Origin: a virus
Virus record (IMG/VR): IMGVR_UViG_3300017613_000561
Span: 1 to 64,000 of that record
Direction: 5' to 3' (one strand)
DNA: 64,000 bases
The notes beneath the pieces were generated by a model. The model had not been told where the DNA came from. It saw only the letters and a list, made by a program, of their open reading frames with translations, and did not search any database. The position numbers and the translations under genes are program-made. This document shows positions 3,623 to 55,473 of this stretch, piece after piece (positions within the stretch are counted from its first letter, which is position 1; every line of letters starts with the position of its first letter).

Positions 3623-4331
3623 GAAAGAACAGCTAGATAAGTACCTGGATGCCTGTGCTCAGCCACAGTCCAACTATGCCATTGAGCATCTGATTGATGG
3701 AGCCCAGCTGACCCCTGAGAGGCGGTTCCGGCAGGCGGTGATAGAACTGAACTCTGCGGAGAACGCACTTAGGAGCTTGGAGCAGGACTTTGCAGAGGCC
3801 AACTTGGATCTGGAGGCCACAGAACACAAGGCCAGATTAATTGGGTATGCAGCATGGCTGTCCACAGCATTCAAAATGGTGGATTTGGCTATCAGGCATC
3901 AACAGAATGCACTTAAGTTCAAAAGAATAAAGGTAGAGCGGCTGTCCAGGTCTTTGTTGGGTCGTCAACGAGAAATGGAAGCGCACTTGAAAGCCCTAGT
4001 AAAATACCAGGAAGAACTGGGGTTTACAGAAGATACTCCTGCCGAGGCAATATATGAGAGGTTGCAAGCAGCTGAGGGGAGGCACTATGCTACTAAGCTA
4101 TCCTTGGATGCAGCGGCACAGATAGTAGCTGCCCGGGGTGGGCCACATATGGGGGTGTTACTGGCTATGCAGCAGTTGCCACCGGAGGATATAGGTAGAG
4201 TGACTGGGTTGGTGGAGAAATTACTTAAGGCCCTGAGTAATAATGAACATGTTCCTGGTCTGCATGACCGGGAGGACTTTTTTAAATTGTTGGCGGGTGA
4301 CACCGCTAAACTGGAAAACAAAGACTCTTAG
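3609..4331 (+). CDS. coiled-coil protein, possible tail-fibre chaperone
   Basis: helical/coiled-coil composition; overlaps end of the fibre gene. Confidence 0.45.
   Translation: MPTLKKEQLDKYLDACAQPQSNYAIEHLIDGAQLTPERRFRQAVIELNSAENALRSLEQDFAEANLDLEATEHKARLIGYAAWLSTAFKMVDLAIRHQQNALKFKRIKVERLSRSLLGRQREMEAHLKALVKYQEELGFTEDTPAEAIYERLQAAEGRHYATKLSLDAAAQIVAARGGPHMGVLLAMQQLPPEDIGRVTGLVEKLLKALSNNEHVPGLHDREDFFKLLAGDTAKLENKDS
3909..3920. repeat. palindrome family, variant GCACTTAAGTTC
   Basis: 1 mismatch; T/A flanks. Confidence 0.6.
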
Positions 4332-27205: not shown

Positions 27206-27625
27206 ATGTTTGAAATAAGGAAGTCAGGATCTCCCTGTCTTAAGCAGGTATCTGCCGAAGTGCCTTTGAACACCAATGTTCAGTCCCTGATTGATACCAT
27301 GTGGTTGGTGATGGACTACAACAAAGGATTGGGCCTTGCCGCTAACCAGATTGGGGAGATGGTAAGGGTGATCGTAATCTCTGCAAGCGGGTTCAGGCAG
27401 GCATTTATCAACCCGGTAATCACCAGAAAGTATGGAGGGCAAAAGAACGTGCGGGAAGGATGCCTATCTTTTCCAGGCCTGGAGGTCAGAACCTCACGAT
27501 ATAAAAGGATCTACCTGGAGGGCTATGATGAAAACTGGCAACCGATCAAACGTAAGTTGGGGGGCATGGCAGCAGTTTGTGCCCAGCATGAAGTAGAGCA
27601 TTTAGATGGAAAAACTATTATTTGA
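27206..27625 (+). CDS. def: peptide deformylase
   Basis: GLGLAANQIG, EGCLS and QHEVEHLDG motifs. Confidence 0.95.
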   Translation: MFEIRKSGSPCLKQVSAEVPLNTNVQSLIDTMWLVMDYNKGLGLAANQIGEMVRVIVISASGFRQAFINPVITRKYGGQKNVREGCLSFPGLEVRTSRYKRIYLEGYDENWQPIKRKLGGMAAVCAQHEVEHLDGKTII

Positions 27626-27650: not shown

Positions 27651-27690
27651 ATAGATTCAGCTAACTAACATTCCTAATGGAGGGAAGAAG

Positions 27691-28305
27691 ATGATCGAAA
27701 ACGCTGAAATGATTAATGGTACTGGTGGCAAACCAGAGTATGTTGTTATCCAAGCAGCCAATAGTATGGCGTTGGGCCTAAAGCCTGTGTGGGAGCGTGA
27801 TTCTCCTATGACTCTGTCTGTAGGGCTCCGCATTCGTGCAGTAATGCATGAGCTGGATGATTCCCCCAAAGCAGCGGAGGATGGTAAGGATTCCAACGTG
27901 TTGAACCTGAACCCAAAGGTCGGTACTACTATTGCCGGTGTTGGGGGTAAGGCCCAGAGTGTGTACCCCAACATTACGTTTACCAAGGTGAAGCACAACT
28001 ATGCTTCGGTATTTATTGGCACCGTAGTTCCTTTGTCTGCTGTTGAAGGGCCTAAGGCTCTGTGGGCATTGTTGGAAGAAGGGCACTTCTTTGACAAGGT
28101 AACAGAGAATGCAAACCCCATGCTTTTTGGTGAGGACTGCCCTGAACTCCGGTACCCCAAGGAGGACATCCTGGCCCACTGGAAGGAGACCATCACTGAA
28201 AAGTATCAGGATATGTGCAAAGAACTGGGTGTATCTGATGCTGAGGAGGAGAAGGAAGCAGATGTCCTGGAGTTTCCTATCCCTGGCAAGGATAATGTGC
28301 ATTAA
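27691..28305 (+). CDS. hypothetical protein
   Basis: GGAGG RBS; own promoter and downstream hairpin. Confidence 0.6.
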   Translation: MIENAEMINGTGGKPEYVVIQAANSMALGLKPVWERDSPMTLSVGLRIRAVMHELDDSPKAAEDGKDSNVLNLNPKVGTTIAGVGGKAQSVYPNITFTKVKHNYASVFIGTVVPLSAVEGPKALWALLEEGHFFDKVTENANPMLFGEDCPELRYPKEDILAHWKETITEKYQDMCKELGVSDAEEEKEADVLEFPIPGKDNVH

Positions 28306-28355: not shown

Positions 28356-28373
28356 AGTGTAGGGATCAAAAAA

Positions 28374-29339
28374 ATGTCTGTAACCCACGTAAAGGCGGCG
28401 TATGCCGCTGTTGGTCTGTCGTCCACTCAAAAGTCAGTACTGTGCTGTTTGGCACACCACGCAGATAAAGCGGGAAAGTGCTGGCCTTCATTCAGGTATA
28501 TCCAGAAAAGCACCGGTCTTAGTCGAAGCACTGTAGCCAGAGGTATTTTGAAGCTAAAAAACTGGGGCTTTATAACCACTACGCCCCGATCCGGGAAGTG
28601 GGGCGGTCAAGTTTCCAGTCTGTACACCGTGCACATAAGTGCAGGACATGTCACAGAAGATAGAAATTCCAAAGTCACTGTGACACCCACCCCATGTCAA
28701 CATGACACCCCCCCCGTGTCACCACGACACCCCCATATATTATATAAATATAATATATTGAATAATAATGGGAACAGTAACAGTGAAGCGGGGAAAACCC
28801 CGCAGAAGAAGGAGCAGATTATGAAGATACCCCAAGGACAAAAGGCAAAGGATATAATCACCTCTTGGGCAGGCAAAGGCCCGAAGCACGATTACGTTCC
28901 GCCTTCGGTAGGGAACAAGTTACAGAAGGTGTGGCACAGTTCTATAGAAGAATACACGCACCCATGGACACAGGAGACCCTTGGAAAGGCCACGCACTTT
29001 GGAAAGACACTAGGGTTTGAGAAGGCCAAGGCTGTTATGGAATATGTTTTGGTGCATTGGTTGGATTATTGCCAGAGGGTCAAGTCAGATGTAGGGCTGT
29101 ATAAGGCCCCTGTAAAGCCTAGCGTTGGATTCCTGCTTAAGCATGCTGAGGTAGCGGTGAACATGTTTGAAGGCAGCACAGGGCTTAACAGCCCCTCAGA
29201 AAAGGGGCCGCAACCAGATGTAATGCATGCTGACGGCACCAAAACGACTATTCCAAAGCCTAAGGCTGGGCTGGCAGGTTCTCTTGGGGGCACGATACCC
29301 ACGGTTAAGACCGCGCACTTAAGTGCAGATGAGGAGTAA
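28374..29339 (+). CDS. replication initiator with N-terminal HTH
   Basis: LCCLAHHAD...CWPS...TGLSRSTV HTH; contains iterons and AT-rich tract; upstream of loader and helicase. Confidence 0.8.
   Translation: MSVTHVKAAYAAVGLSSTQKSVLCCLAHHADKAGKCWPSFRYIQKSTGLSRSTVARGILKLKNWGFITTTPRSGKWGGQVSSLYTVHISAGHVTEDRNSKVTVTPTPCQHDTPPVSPRHPHILYKYNILNNNGNSNSEAGKTPQKKEQIMKIPQGQKAKDIITSWAGKGPKHDYVPPSVGNKLQKVWHSSIEEYTHPWTQETLGKATHFGKTLGFEKAKAVMEYVLVHWLDYCQRVKSDVGLYKAPVKPSVGFLLKHAEVAVNMFEGSTGLNSPSEKGPQPDVMHADGTKTTIPKPKAGLAGSLGGTIPTVKTAHLSADEE
28631..28642. repeat. palindrome family, variant GCACATAAGTGC
   Basis: 1 mismatch; next to origin iterons. Confidence 0.65.
28674..28769. other. putative replication origin: three iterons plus AT-rich unwinding element
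   Basis: GTCA-N3-YGACACCC units at 28674, 28696, 28718 (22-bp period), then an almost pure A/T run at 28735-28769. Confidence 0.7.
29315..29326. repeat. palindrome GCACTTAAGTGC
   Basis: exact copy at 3' end of initiator gene. Confidence 0.9.
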
Positions 29340-30292: not shown

Positions 30293-31567
30293 ATGCCAGT
30301 AAGTCCTGGACGAGCATTGGTGTCTTCCATTCTTAAGGGGGATATCAACCAGTTGCACCATTTAGGTATCAAAGAAGAGTTTTTACAGGAGGATGAAAAA
30401 GACGCACTGAATTATTTAACAGAACACGTTTACAAGTTTGGGGTAATTCCAAACCTGGAGACTCTCCAGGAGCATGTGGATACCTTTGTGCCGGTGGTGG
30501 TGTCTGAGCCTGCGGAGTATTACATTGACCAGCTGAAGAACCGATATTTTTATCGGACCATGAACACGGCTATGAAGCAGGCGCGGGCAGAGATGCAGGT
30601 GCTTAATCCTACGGACAACATGTTGGCCCCGATGGATCTGTTATCGGAGGCCATGCTTGCACTTAAGTTCATTGAGCATGAACGGGATCTGTTCGATTTT
30701 CGGGATGCCTATAGTGTAATCAAGGCAGCCTATGTGGAAGCCTCTAAGGGTGGGCATGAGAACAGCATCACACTGGGGTGGGATACGATAGATGTCATGT
30801 CAGGGGGGCTGGTGCCGGGAGACGTGGTGTCTTACATAGGCAGGCCTGGGTTGGGTAAGACCTGGAGCATACTGCACTCCATGCACCACGCATGGTGGAA
30901 CGAAGGCAAGACAGCTTTGCTGCTATCCATGGAGATGATCCCCAAGATCATTATGCAGCGCATGACAGCCATGCATACCCATACCGGTCTCACTGCCTTG
31001 AAATCTGCTGAGCTGACGACCAAGACCAAGAACAAGGTGTTCAATGAGATGAAGGCCATTAAGGGACATGACAAGCCCTGTTGGATAGTGGATGGGAATC
31101 TGACAGCTACAGTGGATGATCTGAAAATTTTATGTGCCCAGCTTAAGCCCGATGTTGTGTTTGTGGATGGGGCGTATATGTTGAGCCCTTCAATCGGTTA
31201 TCACAGTAAGTGGGATAAGGTGACCAATACGGTGGAGGAGATAAAGAGAGACATAGCCACCAACCTCGGAACCGTAAGTGTGCTGTCTTATCAGTTCAAC
31301 CGGGAGGCGGCTAAGAAGGCCAAGAAAGCAGCTGACGATATAGGGCTGGAGGACATTGGTTTGTCGGATGCTATAGGGCAGATAAGTACATTGGTGTTGG
31401 CCCTGCTGGATAATGAGTCCATTCAGACTGAGGTCAAAAGAAAGATGACGATTATGAAGGGCAGGAATGGTGAGCGCGGGGAGTTTTTCATGAACTGGTG
31501 TTTCAAGACCATGGACTTTTCAGAGATCCTGCCGGAGGATATGCAGTCTAATCTGTCGTTCCTGTAA
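30293..31567 (+). CDS. dnaB: DnaB-like replicative helicase
   Basis: GRPGLGKT, LSMEM, VFVDGAY, QFNR, KGRNGE motifs. Confidence 0.9.
   Translation: MPVSPGRALVSSILKGDINQLHHLGIKEEFLQEDEKDALNYLTEHVYKFGVIPNLETLQEHVDTFVPVVVSEPAEYYIDQLKNRYFYRTMNTAMKQARAEMQVLNPTDNMLAPMDLLSEAMLALKFIEHERDLFDFRDAYSVIKAAYVEASKGGHENSITLGWDTIDVMSGGLVPGDVVSYIGRPGLGKTWSILHSMHHAWWNEGKTALLLSMEMIPKIIMQRMTAMHTHTGLTALKSAELTTKTKNKVFNEMKAIKGHDKPCWIVDGNLTATVDDLKILCAQLKPDVVFVDGAYMLSPSIGYHSKWDKVTNTVEEIKRDIATNLGTVSVLSYQFNREAAKKAKKAADDIGLEDIGLSDAIGQISTLVLALLDNESIQTEVKRKMTIMKGRNGERGEFFMNWCFKTMDFSEILPEDMQSNLSFL
30659..30670. repeat. palindrome family, variant GCACTTAAGTTC
   Basis: 1 mismatch; inside dnaB. Confidence 0.6.
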
Positions 31568-31570
31568 TGT

Positions 31571-31620
31571 ACCCCATTGGACTCCAATAGACTCCAATGA
31601 ACCCCAATAGACTCCAATGA
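31571..31620. repeat. 5 x 10-bp tandem repeat
   Basis: accccattgg/actccaatag/actccaatga/accccaatag/actccaatga. Confidence 0.9.
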
Positions 31621-31632
31621 GCAGCAAAAAGG

Positions 31633-31660
31633 TGGACAGTTGTGGTTAGTTGTGTATACT
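31633..31660 (+). promoter_or_regulatory. sigma70-type promoter of putative sRNA
   Basis: TGGACA-16-TATACT with extended -10 TG. Confidence 0.55.
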
Positions 31661-31665
31661 TGTAG

Positions 31666-31746
31666 CTAGGTGTTGATCTTCCCTCCTGTTTTAAAAAAAC
31701 AGCACCTTAAGGCTTCTGGAGCTGATCCCCTCCAGAGGCCTTTTTT
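31666..31746 (+). ncRNA. putative ~80-nt sRNA with two C-rich anti-SD-like loops
   Basis: promoter, 8-bp stem-loop, 13-bp terminator stem plus U-tract; no ORF. Confidence 0.55.
31709..31746 (+). terminator. Rho-independent terminator
   Basis: aaggcttctggag-ctgatccc-ctccagaggcc followed by T6. Confidence 0.85.
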
Positions 31747-31760
31747 CATGTAAATAATAT

Positions 31761-31788
31761 TTGACAAACGTAGTACATTTGCTATAGT
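31761..31788 (+). promoter_or_regulatory. sigma70-type promoter (TTTGACAAAC family)
   Basis: TTGACA-16-TATAGT with extended -10 TG. Confidence 0.75.
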
Positions 31789-32932: not shown

Positions 32933-33412
32933 ATGGCTGTAACGATTATTAAGAAAGAAACCACAGAGCAGAAGAATGTTACTCACTCTGTAAAAGATGC
33001 GCTTATGCATGACCTGCAGGCAATGGTTCCAGACCTAGTGTTTGCACTGGATAAGGTGGCGCTGTCCAAGGCTAATCTGAAGGTTCTGAATGCGAATCTG
33101 AAGAAGTTGGAGACCCCATTCCAGGAGCATGTAGCTGCGCTTGATATGGAACCAGAACAGACTCTGGTAGTTGATAGCGATGAAACAAGTAGCTCTATTG
33201 AAGTGGGCAAGATACCCAAGAAGCGCACTGTAGAAGACAACGTAGCCATCTTTAAACTGCTGAACGGTATCCAACCAGACTTAGCTTTTGAATTGATGGC
33301 GTTCAAGCTTACTGATTTGGACAAGTATTTGAACCCGAATCAGCTGGAGCTGGTATTGAATACCACGTATGTAGGTAAGCGTCCATTGAAGGCCCTGGAT
33401 AAGAATGGATAA
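32933..33412 (+). CDS. hypothetical protein
   Basis: AGGAG RBS; coupled to primase. Confidence 0.55.
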   Translation: MAVTIIKKETTEQKNVTHSVKDALMHDLQAMVPDLVFALDKVALSKANLKVLNANLKKLETPFQEHVAALDMEPEQTLVVDSDETSSSIEVGKIPKKRTVEDNVAIFKLLNGIQPDLAFELMAFKLTDLDKYLNPNQLELVLNTTYVGKRPLKALDKNG

Positions 33413-34346
33413 ACAAAAGATCCAGCTGTTGTTGGGGGCGTTGGGGATAAAGGGGAGTCGGGTAGGTGACTGGATGCAAGCCAGCTGCCCGTTTGCCCCG
33501 TTCCGGCACAACAATGGGACAGATAATCATCCCAGCTGGGCCGTAAGTATTGCCGAGAACGGGGAAAGCCACCATGCCTGTTACAGCTGCCGGTCTCATG
33601 GGTCTATGTTTGAGTTGGTTATGGACCTTCGCAGGCTGTACAAGAAAAACGAAGTCCCGGCCGATGCAGATTGGAAGGCGGCGGTGGAGTTGTCTTTGGA
33701 AGACGGGGAGGATGCCTTAGTTGATGACTTTGATGATATGGAGACCAAGAAACCCACCCTTACCCTATTCCCAGAAGTATGGGTAAAAAGCTTCCTACCC
33801 GGCCACATGCATCCGTATCTGAAAGAACGTGGGATTCCACAGGGTATAGCACATGAATTGGAGTTTAGGTATGACTCTGATAAGCAGAGGATCTGTCTGC
33901 CGTCCAGGGACAGGTGCGGCCGGTTGGTTGGGTTTTACGGTAGGGATGTAACTGGGCTGTCTGACTTAAGGTATCTGACGTACAAGTACCAAGGGGGTTG
34001 GAACCCTCACCATTGGATTGGGGAAGACAAGGTGTCCTGGGACGACCCTGTGATTCTGACAGAAGGACCTATGGACTATGCCCGTGGGTATCTGACCACC
34101 AAGCAGATGTTGGCTTCAAACACCTCAGCTGTGACGTACAAGAAACTTGATAGGCTGAAAGATGCCCCTATGCTGATCACCATGTACGATCTGGGTACCG
34201 GTGGAGACAATGCCAGAAAGGAAATTACCAAGTGGTCCATGAAAAACAAGGTGCCGCTGCTGAACCTGATTCCAGACACTGTGTACGGGGATTTGGGGGC
34301 GACCCCGCCAGAAAGATTCGCTGAGATGTTGGACTTAAATATTTGA
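33405..34346 (+). CDS. DNA primase (Zn finger plus TOPRIM)
   Basis: CPF...H...CYSC zinc finger, YLKERGI, ILTEGPMD, YDLGTGG. Confidence 0.88.
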   Translation: MDKQKIQLLLGALGIKGSRVGDWMQASCPFAPFRHNNGTDNHPSWAVSIAENGESHHACYSCRSHGSMFELVMDLRRLYKKNEVPADADWKAAVELSLEDGEDALVDDFDDMETKKPTLTLFPEVWVKSFLPGHMHPYLKERGIPQGIAHELEFRYDSDKQRICLPSRDRCGRLVGFYGRDVTGLSDLRYLTYKYQGGWNPHHWIGEDKVSWDDPVILTEGPMDYARGYLTTKQMLASNTSAVTYKKLDRLKDAPMLITMYDLGTGGDNARKEITKWSMKNKVPLLNLIPDTVYGDLGATPPERFAEMLDLNI

Positions 34347-35165: not shown

Positions 35166-35173
35166 TTAAGTGC
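35162..35173. repeat. palindrome GCACTTAAGTGC
   Basis: exact intergenic copy. Confidence 0.9.
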
Positions 35174-35184
35174 AAGGGATCAGA

Positions 35185-36498
35185 ATGCTGCGAAAATATA
35201 ATGAAATTCCTGTTATGACTCATGCAGGTGCAGTGTATGAGTACAATGAGCAACTGGCAAAGAAGTTTACAGTGTTGTCCACTTATGATGATGAAGTGGA
35301 ACTGTTTAAGATACATAAGACAGTTGGTGGCAAATCCTGGATTTGGTTACCTAGAGCCTGCTGCCCTTTGGGAGAAGATCGTAGGAATCTTGGTACGATA
35401 GTTGATTTTAAACTACATTTCAAACCCAGGAATAAGGAGCAAGCCAGGGTAGTAGCAGAAGCTTCGGATCTTTTGGCAGCAGAAGAAAGTTTTATAATCA
35501 GAGCACCAACCGGTTTTGGTAAGACGGCTATAACCATGCCTTTGATTGCTGCTGTGAGCCGTAAGACTCTGATAGTGGTTACTAAGGAAGATGTGAAGGT
35601 TCAGTGGAGAAGGGCTCTGAAACAGTTTTTGGGACTGTCTGACAATGATATTGGGTACATCCAAGGTGATGTGTGTAGTGTTGCTGGTAAAAAGGTTGTT
35701 ATCGCTATGATTCAATCTGTTTGTAAGCCTGGACGATATCCCAAAGGAACCTTTGATGCTTTTGGGCTTGTGATTCCAGATGAAGTACATAGGTTGGGAG
35801 CAGATAAATTTAGTCAGGTAGCATGGCAAGTACCGGCGCTGTTACGGTTGGGGTTGTCTGCTACCCCCAAGCGGCAAGATGGTAAGGATATAGTATTCAG
35901 GAGTCACATTGGTCCTGTGCGGGTAAAGACAGACTTGGTGCCTATGGTACCAAAGGTAATAGTGGTTAAGAGTAATTGGAAGCCACCTTATAAGATAAAG
36001 ATTTCAGCTGGTAGGACCATGCATGTAAATAAGATGCTGGCACGGTGTAGGGACAGAAACAATATGATGGCTAATTTTATCCAGCAGGCTTATGAGAAGG
36101 GGCGTAACATCGTTTTCTTTTCAGATCTGCGGGACGGGCATTTGTTACCTATGCAAGATCTGTTATTAATGCGAGGGATACCCGGTAAGGATATTGGGTT
36201 TTATGTGGGGGGATTAACGGAGCACCAGCAGGACGTAGCTAAGGCTAAAAGAGTAGTGTTGACGACTTATAAGATGTGTTCGGAGGCAACCGATGCTCCA
36301 TGGTGGGACACAGGTGTTTTTGGAACACCTAAGTCAGACGTAACACAGATTGTAGGGCGGGTTATCAGGGAATACCCAGATAAGCCAACCCCGATCATAT
36401 TTGATGTGGAGGATGTATCACTTCCACTGTTTAAGGCCTACGCTAAAAAACGATTAGGTTTCTATCATAAGCTGGGAGCTGAGGTTGTCTTTCGCTAG
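35185..36498 (+). CDS. superfamily 2 DNA helicase
   Basis: APTGFGKT, DEVH, LSATP, QIVGRVIR motifs. Confidence 0.9.
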   Translation: MLRKYNEIPVMTHAGAVYEYNEQLAKKFTVLSTYDDEVELFKIHKTVGGKSWIWLPRACCPLGEDRRNLGTIVDFKLHFKPRNKEQARVVAEASDLLAAEESFIIRAPTGFGKTAITMPLIAAVSRKTLIVVTKEDVKVQWRRALKQFLGLSDNDIGYIQGDVCSVAGKKVVIAMIQSVCKPGRYPKGTFDAFGLVIPDEVHRLGADKFSQVAWQVPALLRLGLSATPKRQDGKDIVFRSHIGPVRVKTDLVPMVPKVIVVKSNWKPPYKIKISAGRTMHVNKMLARCRDRNNMMANFIQQAYEKGRNIVFFSDLRDGHLLPMQDLLLMRGIPGKDIGFYVGGLTEHQQDVAKAKRVVLTTYKMCSEATDAPWWDTGVFGTPKSDVTQIVGRVIREYPDKPTPIIFDVEDVSLPLFKAYAKKRLGFYHKLGAEVVFR

Positions 36499-37263: not shown

Positions 37264-38331
37264 ATGTCTAAAGCTGCTGACGTAGCCTCAGAGCTACAAA
37301 AAAAGTTGGGTGAGACCGTTGTCACCACTGGTGAGTATTTGGTGGATGTAGAACGCATACCTACAGGGGTGTTCCCTTTTGACTTATCTTGTGGGGGTGG
37401 TTTTCCAAGGGGTAAGGTTTCCATAGTTTATGGCCCTGAATCGTCAGGTAAGACCAACTTGTTTTTGTTGTCCATTGCTTTGGAACAGAAGTTGAACCCA
37501 CACATGGAAAACGTGTTTGTGGATGTGGAGAACAGCTTTGATCCCTCCTGGGCCAAGAAGATGGGGGTGGATGTAGACAAGTTGCTGGTGTTGCATCCAG
37601 ATCATGCAGAGCAGGCTGTTGATATGGTGGATGCCATGTTGCAGGCTGAGGATGTGTCGTTGATAGTGGTGGATTCACTGGCAGCAATGATCCCGCTTAA
37701 TGAGCAGGATAGTACGGCTGCAAAGGCGCAGGTTGGTGGGGCCAGTGCGTTGATAGGAAAGTTGATCCGTAAGGGTGTAAGTCAGCAGTCTAAAGAGAAG
37801 CGCAAGGGACATTACCCTACACTGCTATTGGTGAATCAGATCCGTATGAAGATCGGGGTCATGTTTGGTAGCCCTGAGACCATGCCTGGAGGTAACGCTA
37901 TAAAGTTTGCCTCAGGCCTTACTGCCAGGATATACGGTAAGAATGAGATGTTGGAGAGCATATCTAAGACCATGCCTGTATTGAAGGAGACTCAGGTTGT
38001 TATCCAGAAATGGAAGGTGCCTATTGTAGCGGTGAACAGTAAGTACAAGATGTGCATGATTCCACACAATGGAATGGTGCCTGGAGATGTGAGAGATAGG
38101 GGGACAGTGGAGACGTACCTCAGGGATATGGGTCAGATCGTAAAGCAGGGGGCCAAGTGGTTTTTCTTTGGCACGGAGTATAAGACCCTGACGGCTGGGT
38201 TGGATGCCCTGTACGCAGATGAAGAGGCCCTGACCTACGCTAAGCAGATGATTATAGATGGTATGGTTAGCAAGATTCATGGATTACCCACGGAGTTTGA
38301 TGATGTGGAAGAGAAAAACAACAAAAAATAA
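37264..38331 (+). CDS. recA: RecA/UvsX-like recombinase
   Basis: GPESSGKT, IVVDSLAA, NQIRMKIGVMFGSPETMPGGNAIKF. Confidence 0.93.
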   Translation: MSKAADVASELQKKLGETVVTTGEYLVDVERIPTGVFPFDLSCGGGFPRGKVSIVYGPESSGKTNLFLLSIALEQKLNPHMENVFVDVENSFDPSWAKKMGVDVDKLLVLHPDHAEQAVDMVDAMLQAEDVSLIVVDSLAAMIPLNEQDSTAAKAQVGGASALIGKLIRKGVSQQSKEKRKGHYPTLLLVNQIRMKIGVMFGSPETMPGGNAIKFASGLTARIYGKNEMLESISKTMPVLKETQVVIQKWKVPIVAVNSKYKMCMIPHNGMVPGDVRDRGTVETYLRDMGQIVKQGAKWFFFGTEYKTLTAGLDALYADEEALTYAKQMIIDGMVSKIHGLPTEFDDVEEKNNKK

Positions 38332-41680: not shown

Positions 41681-41693
41681 TAAGGAGGGGATC

Positions 41694-42098
41694 GTGAAGG
41701 TTATATGTCCGTATTGCGATAATCCGGCAGAGCTGGTGGATGGAACAACGGTTTACCCACACAGGCCCGATCTAGGGCACTTGAAGTTTTGGAATTGTGC
41801 CCCTTGTAATGCCTACGTAGGAACACATAAGAATAGTCGTAGACATAAGCCATTAGGAAGATTAGCCAATGCAGAACTTAGAAACTGGAAAGGTTTTGCC
41901 CACGGTGCTTTCGATCCCTTATGGGAGACCATGGTAATACGGGATAACATTAAGGCAGTAAAGGCCAGAGGTAGAGCCTACAAGTGGTTGGCTGCACAAC
42001 TGGAGATAGATATTAAGGATTGTCATATTGGGATGTTTGATGTGGCTATGTGTAAAAGAGTGGTAGGTCTTTGTCATAGAACGCGGGTCATTATGTAA
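41694..42098 (+). CDS. DUF3268-like zinc-finger protein
   Basis: CPYC, CNAYVGTH, PLGRLAN, AHGAFDPLW, CHIGMFD. Confidence 0.8.
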   Translation: MKVICPYCDNPAELVDGTTVYPHRPDLGHLKFWNCAPCNAYVGTHKNSRRHKPLGRLANAELRNWKGFAHGAFDPLWETMVIRDNIKAVKARGRAYKWLAAQLEIDIKDCHIGMFDVAMCKRVVGLCHRTRVIM

Positions 42099-55433: not shown

Positions 55434-55446
55434 TGTGTAGTACTTT

Positions 55447-55473
55447 GGCGGGGATCTCCCCCCGCCTTTTTTT
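55447..55473 (+). terminator. Rho-independent terminator
   Basis: ggcgggg-atctcc-ccccgcc followed by T7. Confidence 0.75.

Follow-up and report, generated by a model that had tools for sequence, protein, structure and literature searches.

Behind the dnaB-like gene of a metagenomic phage lies a short non-coding unit (positions 31633-31746, + strand), and the question that it raises is whether the end of the replication operon holds a terminator alone or also gives rise to a small RNA that pairs with translation start sites of the phage. The sequence comes from IMG/VR record IMGVR_UViG_3300017613_000561, a complete metagenomic phage genome of 92,447 bp; "the window" refers hereafter to its first 64 kb (64,000 nucleotides), and positions are those of the window unless given as genome positions. 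Genes were called with a simple script, yielding 141 genes, some of whose starts may be wrong, and the start region of a gene was defined as positions -25 to +5. All sizeable ORFs lie on the + strand.

Homology searches yielded a total of 359 DnaB homologues, the top one being 63% identical. The closest cultured relatives reach a DnaB identity of at most 36%, and the relatives with known hosts infect Proteobacteria. A blastn search of a phage collection using the phage DNA as a query returned no match, as did scans of IMG/VR using the single DnaB protein or a 20-nt exact pattern.

The replication operon and the unit at its end

The operon starts at a promoter near 27621 and comprises, in this order, gene 27691, the initiator gene, gene 29473 and dnaB. 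Its promoter belongs to a family with the extended -35 box TTTGACAAAC, which has 17 copies in the genome, all on the + strand. The features needed below are:

27691-28305, + strand: first gene of the replication operon, no function assigned
28374-29339, + strand: replication initiator (replication module)
30293-31567, + strand: dnaB-like replicative helicase, last gene of the operon (PHROG phrog_19, E-value 9e-50)
31580-31618: tandem array of 3.9 copies of the 10-bp unit GACTCCAATA (Tandem Repeats Finder score 57)
31633-31660, + strand: sigma-70-like promoter match TGGACA-16-TATACT, 10/12, outside the TTTGACAAAC family
31668-31707, + strand: hairpin 1, with an 8-bp stem (31668-31675/31700-31707) and a 24-nt loop carrying AUCUUCCCUCCU
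31674-31688, + strand: anti-SD motif copy 1, UGAUCUUCCCUCCUG, predicted to be unpaired
31709-31746, + strand: intrinsic terminator, with a 13-bp stem (31709-31742), the 8-nt loop CUGAUCCC and a U6 tail
31722-31735, + strand: anti-SD motif copy 2, CUGAUCCCCUCCAG, whose first 8 nt form the loop and the remainder part of the stem
31761-31788, + strand: next family promoter, TTGACA-16-TATAGT, 11/12, the 3' boundary of the unit
33405-34346: primase gene (replication module)
35170-36498: helicase gene (replication module)
37264-38331: RecA homologue (Pfam RecA, 1e-53)
41694-42098: DUF3268 zinc-finger protein (Pfam, 4e-33)

The second hairpin is almost certainly the Rho-independent terminator that closes the replication operon. 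Its stem contains 7 G-C pairs among 13 bp and is followed by T6 (loop at 31722-31729, T-run at 31741-31746), with an energy of -21.6 kcal/mol and a z-score of -4.3. With the dnaB stop 142 nt upstream and the next promoter 15 nt downstream, it is the sole strong intrinsic terminator on the + strand between 25 and 44 kb of the window and one of about three strong intergenic terminators genome-wide. Another strong terminator of the window, at 55442-55473, has the stem GGCGGGG/CCCCGCC, the loop AUCUCC and a T7 run, is directly followed by an SD and a start codon, and carries the string GAUCUCCCC, similar to motif 1.

The promoter call at 31633-31660 is a consensus match only. Its score equals that of the family promoters, and between 25 and 44 kb only the promoter at 31761 scores higher; eight other + strand sites reach at least 10/12 in this interval, seven of them with the TTGACA box of the family. 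Repeats of AGTTGTG(TA) with a spacing of 10-11 bp are found right after dnaB, in the window (31640-31656) as well as in several relatives (for instance L015, ~4285-4315, and L026, ~4267-4275). In the window, they overlap the -10 region and could form a binding site instead of, or besides, a promoter element. The GACTCCAATA array, located between the dnaB stop and the promoter-like site with an inverted CCATTGG in front of it, probably binds a protein; its unit was not found elsewhere in the genome and is absent from the closest relative. A different repeat, the 22-bp unit GACACCCCCCCCATGTCAACAC, is present in 2.4 tandem copies inside the initiator gene (28682-28734), the position of origin iterons in lambda-style origins.

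To describe the fold of the unit, we predicted the structure of the 87 nt starting at 31664, which form two hairpins (-30.6 kcal/mol, z-score -4.0, mostly due to the terminator). Hairpin 1 on its own has an MFE of -8.6 kcal/mol and a z-score of -1.8, and 8 of 200 shuffles fold equally well, making its significance marginal. In the predicted ensemble, motif 1 is unpaired with a probability of ~0.9 or higher across AUCUUCCCUC. Most of motif 2 (CUCC) is buried in the 13-bp terminator stem, leaving only the 8-nt loop free. The + strand is C-poor, and of the 12 CCCTCC sites that it carries in the genome, two are located in this 80-nt non-coding unit. The anatomy given in the preliminary description thus holds throughout, namely a promoter-like site of its own outside the family, a first stem enclosing a C-rich motif, and a terminator stem whose loop is followed by CTCC. 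Taken together, the promoter-like site, the predicted unpaired C/U-rich motif and the strong terminator support a unit laid out like a stand-alone or 3'-UTR-type small RNA.

Several other functions were considered for the unit and rejected. A small protein was discarded on the grounds that the + strand holds no ORF of at least 30 aa between 31568 and 31833 and that the short frames of the window and of its closest relative are dissimilar. A -1 frameshift site at A7-C falls away, as no ORF enters the region; an antiterminator built from motif 1 and the 5' arm of the terminator would have only 4 bp; and the minus strand has neither a U-run nor a promoter from which the unit could be transcribed in the other direction. 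For a CsrA sponge, the unit contains only one GGA, located in a stem, and the phage itself has a sub-threshold partial CsrA-like match (21.6 bits for a cut-off of 27), in a 114-aa ORF outside the window (genome 68523-68597).

Complementarity to start regions and its chance level

Exact complements of the two motifs and of the terminator loop had been reported in the start regions of three genes, together with shorter GGGATC matches before others. All of them are present, the three main sites being:

27679-27688, + strand: candidate target, SD region of 27691-28305; exact 10-nt complement of motif 1, -19.6 kcal/mol
41684-41693, + strand: candidate target, SD and spacer of 41694-42098; exact 10-nt complement of motif 2, -22.7 kcal/mol
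35176-35183, + strand: candidate target of the terminator loop, GGGAUCAG in the start region of the helicase gene; -13.9 kcal/mol for the loop alone

Neither GGAGGGAAGA (27679) nor GGAGGGGATC (41684) has a second copy on the + strand, and both directly precede a start codon. Pairing of motif 2 at 41684-41693 needs the terminator stem to be opened. GGGATCAG is located at 35176, where GGGAUCAG lies directly 3' of a GCACTTAAGTGC palindrome, and GGGATC at 28362, 30284, 42114, 57901 and 58954.

The two 10-mers are at chance level. Keeping CCCTCC fixed and drawing six random bases on each side, we obtained a match of at least 10 nt to some start region in 23% of 3000 trials, and with pyrimidine-rich flanks in 26% of trials. 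A 10-nt complement to start regions is reached by 13% of + strand segments, and the longest match of the window's element has a p-value of 0.40 when compared with dinucleotide shuffles. The caveat already attached to these sites, that any anti-SD-like sequence matches RBSs to some degree, is therefore borne out by the numbers, and taken by themselves the named targets have no evidential weight. One such chance match is a 12-nt perfect antisense to the start region of gene 42120, found inside recA at 37539, where it encodes FDPSW.

The aggregate complementarity, in contrast to the individual 10-mers, is beyond chance. The element is complementary over at least 8 nt to 13 start regions, for a mean of 2.45 among 83-nt segments of the + strand, only 0.16% of which reach 13 matched start regions. 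Compared with dinucleotide shuffles, the number of matched start regions has a p-value of 0.017-0.022; several statistics were tried, and this and the other p-values are optimistic. Motif 1 forms predicted duplexes of -17 to -21 kcal/mol with start regions of the GGAGGG type, for about -10 to -13 kcal/mol for the generic 16S tail on most of these regions, and the terminator loop alone reaches -10 to -14 kcal/mol with GGGAUC(AG) start regions. Running RNAduplex with the whole length of the element against all start regions gave energies indistinguishable from those of shuffles.

The strings matched by the element recur in the translation signals of the phage. GGGATC is found immediately 5' of a start codon at 41688, 42114 and 58954 in the window and at 69638 in the genome, and nine sites of the start-region type match the complement of the 16S tail, GGAGGTGATC, with at most one mismatch, from which we conclude that the phage uses extended SD sequences. 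The palindrome GCACT(T/C)AAGTGC has 15-19 copies in the phage (among them those at 29315, 32692, 35162, 40453, 44111, 54185, 56358, 57885 and 60199 of the window) and 17 in the relative with 63% DnaB identity (L110-L114), often directly 5' of an SD. In the phage, five or six copies have GGATCA(G) behind them, to which the terminator loop is complementary.

Both motifs had also been likened to the 3' end of 16S rRNA. This resemblance is real, since both copies read UGAUC and then CCCUCC and copy 2 matches the universal tail GAUCACCUCC at 9 of 10 positions, with one mismatch. It is absent in the closest relative, and similar strings arise by chance in coding DNA: the + strand has three sites with at most one mismatch from GAUCACCUCC, and the other two, one of them exact, lie in coding DNA.

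The unit in related phages

The closest relative is an 88-kb contig binned in a MAG (DnaB 63% identical), which has the same promoter family and the GCACTTAAGTGC palindrome. Two further close relatives, P0003 (58%) and P0004 (46%), are Logan assemblies only and were left out of the element comparison. Aligned with MAFFT, the sequences downstream of dnaB in the window and in the closest relative were unalignable outside the U-run and the next promoter. The relative nonetheless shares with the window the succession of TGT-TATACT, exactly 20 nt and CCCUC. The U-run then follows CCCUC after 62 nt (60 in the window), and both units end in a strong terminator. TGT-TATACT is an extended -10 box, and a consensus scan found no -35 box in the relative, so that an independent promoter is not clearly conserved. 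The counterpart of hairpin 1 folds no better than shuffles (z-score +0.2), the loop sequences are not conserved between the two, and the relative's element contains neither GAUC nor a second CCUCC.

The relative's own element is complementary to its own start regions. The 5' segment of this element, CAUGAGACCCUC, is antisense to gene 24014 over 12 nt without a mismatch, covering SD, spacer and AUG, and to three other start regions, which have GUCUCAUG in common, over 8-9 nt. A 12-mer antisense to a start region is held by only 0.5% of the + strand segments of this relative, and the element has a p-value of 0.025 against shuffles. Next to the C-rich core, both phages carry the complement of their own recurrent spacer module, which is GGGAUC-AUG for the window and GUCUC-AUG for the relative. 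In the orthologues of the named targets 27691 and 41694, only GAGGGU (6 nt) is kept.

To cover the clade more widely, we recovered 94 related loci through DnaB, yielding 69 distinct segments downstream of dnaB. Their recurrent layout consists of the dnaB stop, a short non-coding stretch, often a terminator, and then a TTGACAAA(C) promoter. Some relatives lack the element and have the promoter directly after dnaB. The 5-mers enriched in the 69 segments derive from the family promoter, the SD of the next gene and the T-run; anti-SD pentamers are not enriched there (CCTCC 6 times, for 6.6 expected). The TTGACAAA(C) promoter is strand-specific and conserved across phages of 80-120 kb (G002-G010, L011-L107) whose DnaB proteins are only 30-45% identical, and a reversed-pattern control gave almost no matches. 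In a distant relative (L012), a tRNA gene (4151-4224, 70.6 bits) lies ~1.2 kb downstream of dnaB.

For the closest relative and nine complete or long records, the longest exact match between the element and any start region was then compared with that of 1500 dinucleotide shuffles. Among the nine records, the results were:

G002: longest antisense match 12 nt, p = 0.009
G006: longest antisense match 12 nt, p = 0.013
G004: longest antisense match 11 nt, p = 0.047
Remaining six records: antisense match not significant

Counting the closest relative, 4 of 10 relatives have a p-value of at most 0.05, whereas of the 247 intergenic gaps taken from these genomes as controls only 6.5% do (about 0.003 by binomial arithmetic), and Fisher's combined p-value over the 10 relatives is 0.016. 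The same test on same-sense matches gave p = 0.91; the excess is thus confined to antisense matches, which span SDs and spacers. In G002, GGUUUUCUCC faces GGAGAAAACC-AUG of two genes, and a further segment, CUUCCCCUU, is antisense to AAGGGGAAG of another two from within a terminator loop of 13 nt; G004 has its 11-mer in a loop of about 20 nt, again that of a terminator, and both loops are unusually large. As no more than a lead, a gene of ~155 aa just 5' of the primase gene was matched in three relatives (Fisher 2e-4 over the 10, for a gene chosen post hoc), and in the window itself the match at the ~155-aa gene upstream of the primase gene spans only 6 nt.

Readings of the unit and its place among known RNAs

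We consider that the unit, besides terminating the operon, is probably also a base-pairing RNA acting on phage start sites, a reading supported by the match statistics and by the relatives, to which we give a probability of roughly 45%. An RNA of ~80 nt released at the operon terminator would act as a small base-pairing RNA, either transcribed from the TGGACA-16-TATACT promoter, with a start near 31668, or processed out of the operon mRNA at its 3' end, or both. Purine-rich start regions of the types GGAGGG(A) and GGGAUC-AUG, for instance those of 27691, 32714, 41694, 42120, 63342, 65728 and 71568, would be bound by the unpaired C/U-rich motif 1, UCUUCCCUCCUG, with help from the loop CUGAUCCC. 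By competing with the 30S subunit, such pairing would reduce translation. An RNA made where the replication operon ends would thereby link the translation of some of the phage genes to how strongly the replication module is expressed. The discrete RNA, its start, the pairing in vivo and the repressive effect are all things that we infer. The proposal of a trans-acting translational switch made in the preliminary description is consistent with the aggregate complementarity and with the orientation-specific antisense signal in relatives; the particular targets it named are at chance level and the loops on which it relied are not conserved.

The main rival of a base-pairing RNA is a reading of the unit as solely the 3' UTR and terminator of the dnaB operon, in which the C/U-rich strings come about simply because a G+C-rich hairpin lies on a G-skewed strand, the promoter-like match is weak or arises by accident, and no RNA acts in trans. 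We take this to be a serious contender that may well be correct, if with odds somewhat against it. What the clade shares downstream of dnaB is a terminator with the family promoter TTGACAAAC behind it; the 10-mers are at chance level, hairpin 1 is short of significance, the closest relative has no -35 box, 6 of 10 relatives show no antisense excess, and strings resembling the 16S tail or antisense to start regions also occur in coding DNA. What a terminator would leave unexplained is an aggregate complementarity in the top 0.16% of + strand segments, the retention of TATACT, 20 nt and CCCUC in a relative whose intergenic sequence is otherwise unalignable, an antisense-specific excess in 4 of 10 relatives against 6.5% of controls, and the large C/U-rich terminator loops of G002 and G004, which termination does not need.

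Two further readings were weighed. The unit could act at the DNA level, as an operator, a regulatory hub or a replication origin bound by phage proteins, with the inverted copies of start regions serving as half-sites and any transcript either activating the site or being incidental. The 10-bp CCAAT array at 31580-31618, the AGTTGTG repeats at 31640-31656 (also in L015 and L026), the CCAAT/ATTGG repeats after dnaB in the distant relatives L017, L024 and L025, the A7/T4 tract, the long palindrome and the position between dnaB and the primase gene would all suit such a site, and the antisense segment of G006 itself lies in a near-palindrome. We nevertheless regard it as improbable: the 22-bp repeat inside the initiator gene is a better origin candidate, as in lambda-type origins, the CCAAT array is absent in the closest relative, the matched strings span SD, spacer and AUG in a way that RNA pairing fits better, and a palindrome with a U-run is a textbook terminator. 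Least probable of all, and in our view a long shot, is that the unit mimics the 16S tail (GAUC-N-CCUCC, twice), either as a general decoy for the strong or extended SDs of host mRNAs or by titrating a factor that recognises the tail. The match of copy 2 to GAUCACCUCC at 9 of 10 positions, the UGAUC followed by CCCUCC in both copies and the nine extended-SD sites of the phage, which such a mimic would bind, speak for it, against the lack of both GAUC and a second CCUCC in the closest relative, the base-pairing of half of copy 2, and the two other + strand near-matches in coding DNA, which put the expectation at about one per genome by chance. The tail used in this comparison is the universal one.

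Returning to the base-pairing RNA, a wider claim can be formulated for the ~90-100-kb phages that carry the TTGACAAAC promoter, which we find doubtful at present. The 3' end of the dnaB operon would hold a positionally conserved riboregulator whose sequence drifts while its unpaired or loop segments stay antisense to the SD-spacer-AUG modules of the same phage, with several members including the ~155-aa gene among their targets. Seed and targets would co-evolve, and in the present phage convergence would have turned the seed into a near-copy of the 16S tail, competing with ribosomes for extended SDs.

We then compared the unit with known RNAs. Searching the whole window against Rfam 15, we found no family at the gathering score. 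The best Rfam match was αr15/AbcR (RF02345), below threshold with 13.8 bits for a gathering score of 40 (E-value 0.85-1.6). In E-value mode, it was the only Rfam alignment spanning exactly 31664-31746, and it places CCCUCC on the single-stranded CCCUC of the model. In the 10 related loci, no match to αr15/AbcR was found. The first hairpin of the αr15 model is missing in the unit, which is moreover borne by a phage, at the end of a replication operon, and whose candidate targets are phage genes and not those of ABC transporters.

C-rich unpaired motifs, often duplicated, that pair with G-rich SDs are known from RsaE/RoxS and from the hairpins of RNAIII in Firmicutes. The principle is the same as in the unit, which differs in having no Rfam match and only one truly unpaired motif, and the phage's relatives with known hosts infect Proteobacteria. 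Small RNAs of the DapZ, CpxQ and SroC types arise from 3' UTRs, share the terminator of the upstream mRNA, are produced from an internal or adjacent promoter or by processing, and have their seed upstream of the terminator. These are encoded by enterobacterial hosts and depend on Hfq and RNase E, whereas the unit is encoded by a phage.

AbcR1 uses two separate single-stranded anti-SD modules to address the translation initiation regions of many mRNAs (PMC4152367). Like the unit, AbcR1/αr15 of Rhizobiales is a small RNA ending in a Rho-independent terminator. Set against the two single-stranded modules of AbcR1, motif 1 of the unit is predicted to be single-stranded and motif 2 to be half loop and half stem. 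AbcR1 is, by analogy, the closest functional counterpart of the putative RNA, through its anti-SD modules with many targets. Among phage RNAs, c4 of P1/P7 and sar of P22 are ~70-80 nt long and have loops that pair around the RBS of a phage mRNA and block translation; OOP of lambda, 77 nt long, is located among the replication genes and has a promoter and a terminator of its own (PMC12197685). The phages of c4 and sar are temperate, and each of these two RNAs is dedicated to a single antirepressor mRNA, whereas the unit, located where a replication operon ends, has many candidate start regions; OOP is read from the opposite strand as a cis-antisense RNA of cII, whereas the unit is co-directional with all its neighbours and overlaps no gene. 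By analogy, the unit would work like AbcR1, c4, sar and OOP, yet it is a member of none of these families.

To our knowledge, few base-pairing RNAs are known from virulent-type or uncultured phages, and they mostly control one lysogeny gene. If the unit is only a terminator, the finding is an ordinary one. If the base-pairing reading is true, the relation between seed and targets would be conserved while the sequence is not, and such cases would be missed by sequence-based searches for RNA families; the test for antisense matches to start regions needs only a genome sequence and is applicable to other phage clades. By damping the translation of a number of phage genes, an RNA produced where the replication operon ends would then provide the phage with a simple timing or feedback device.
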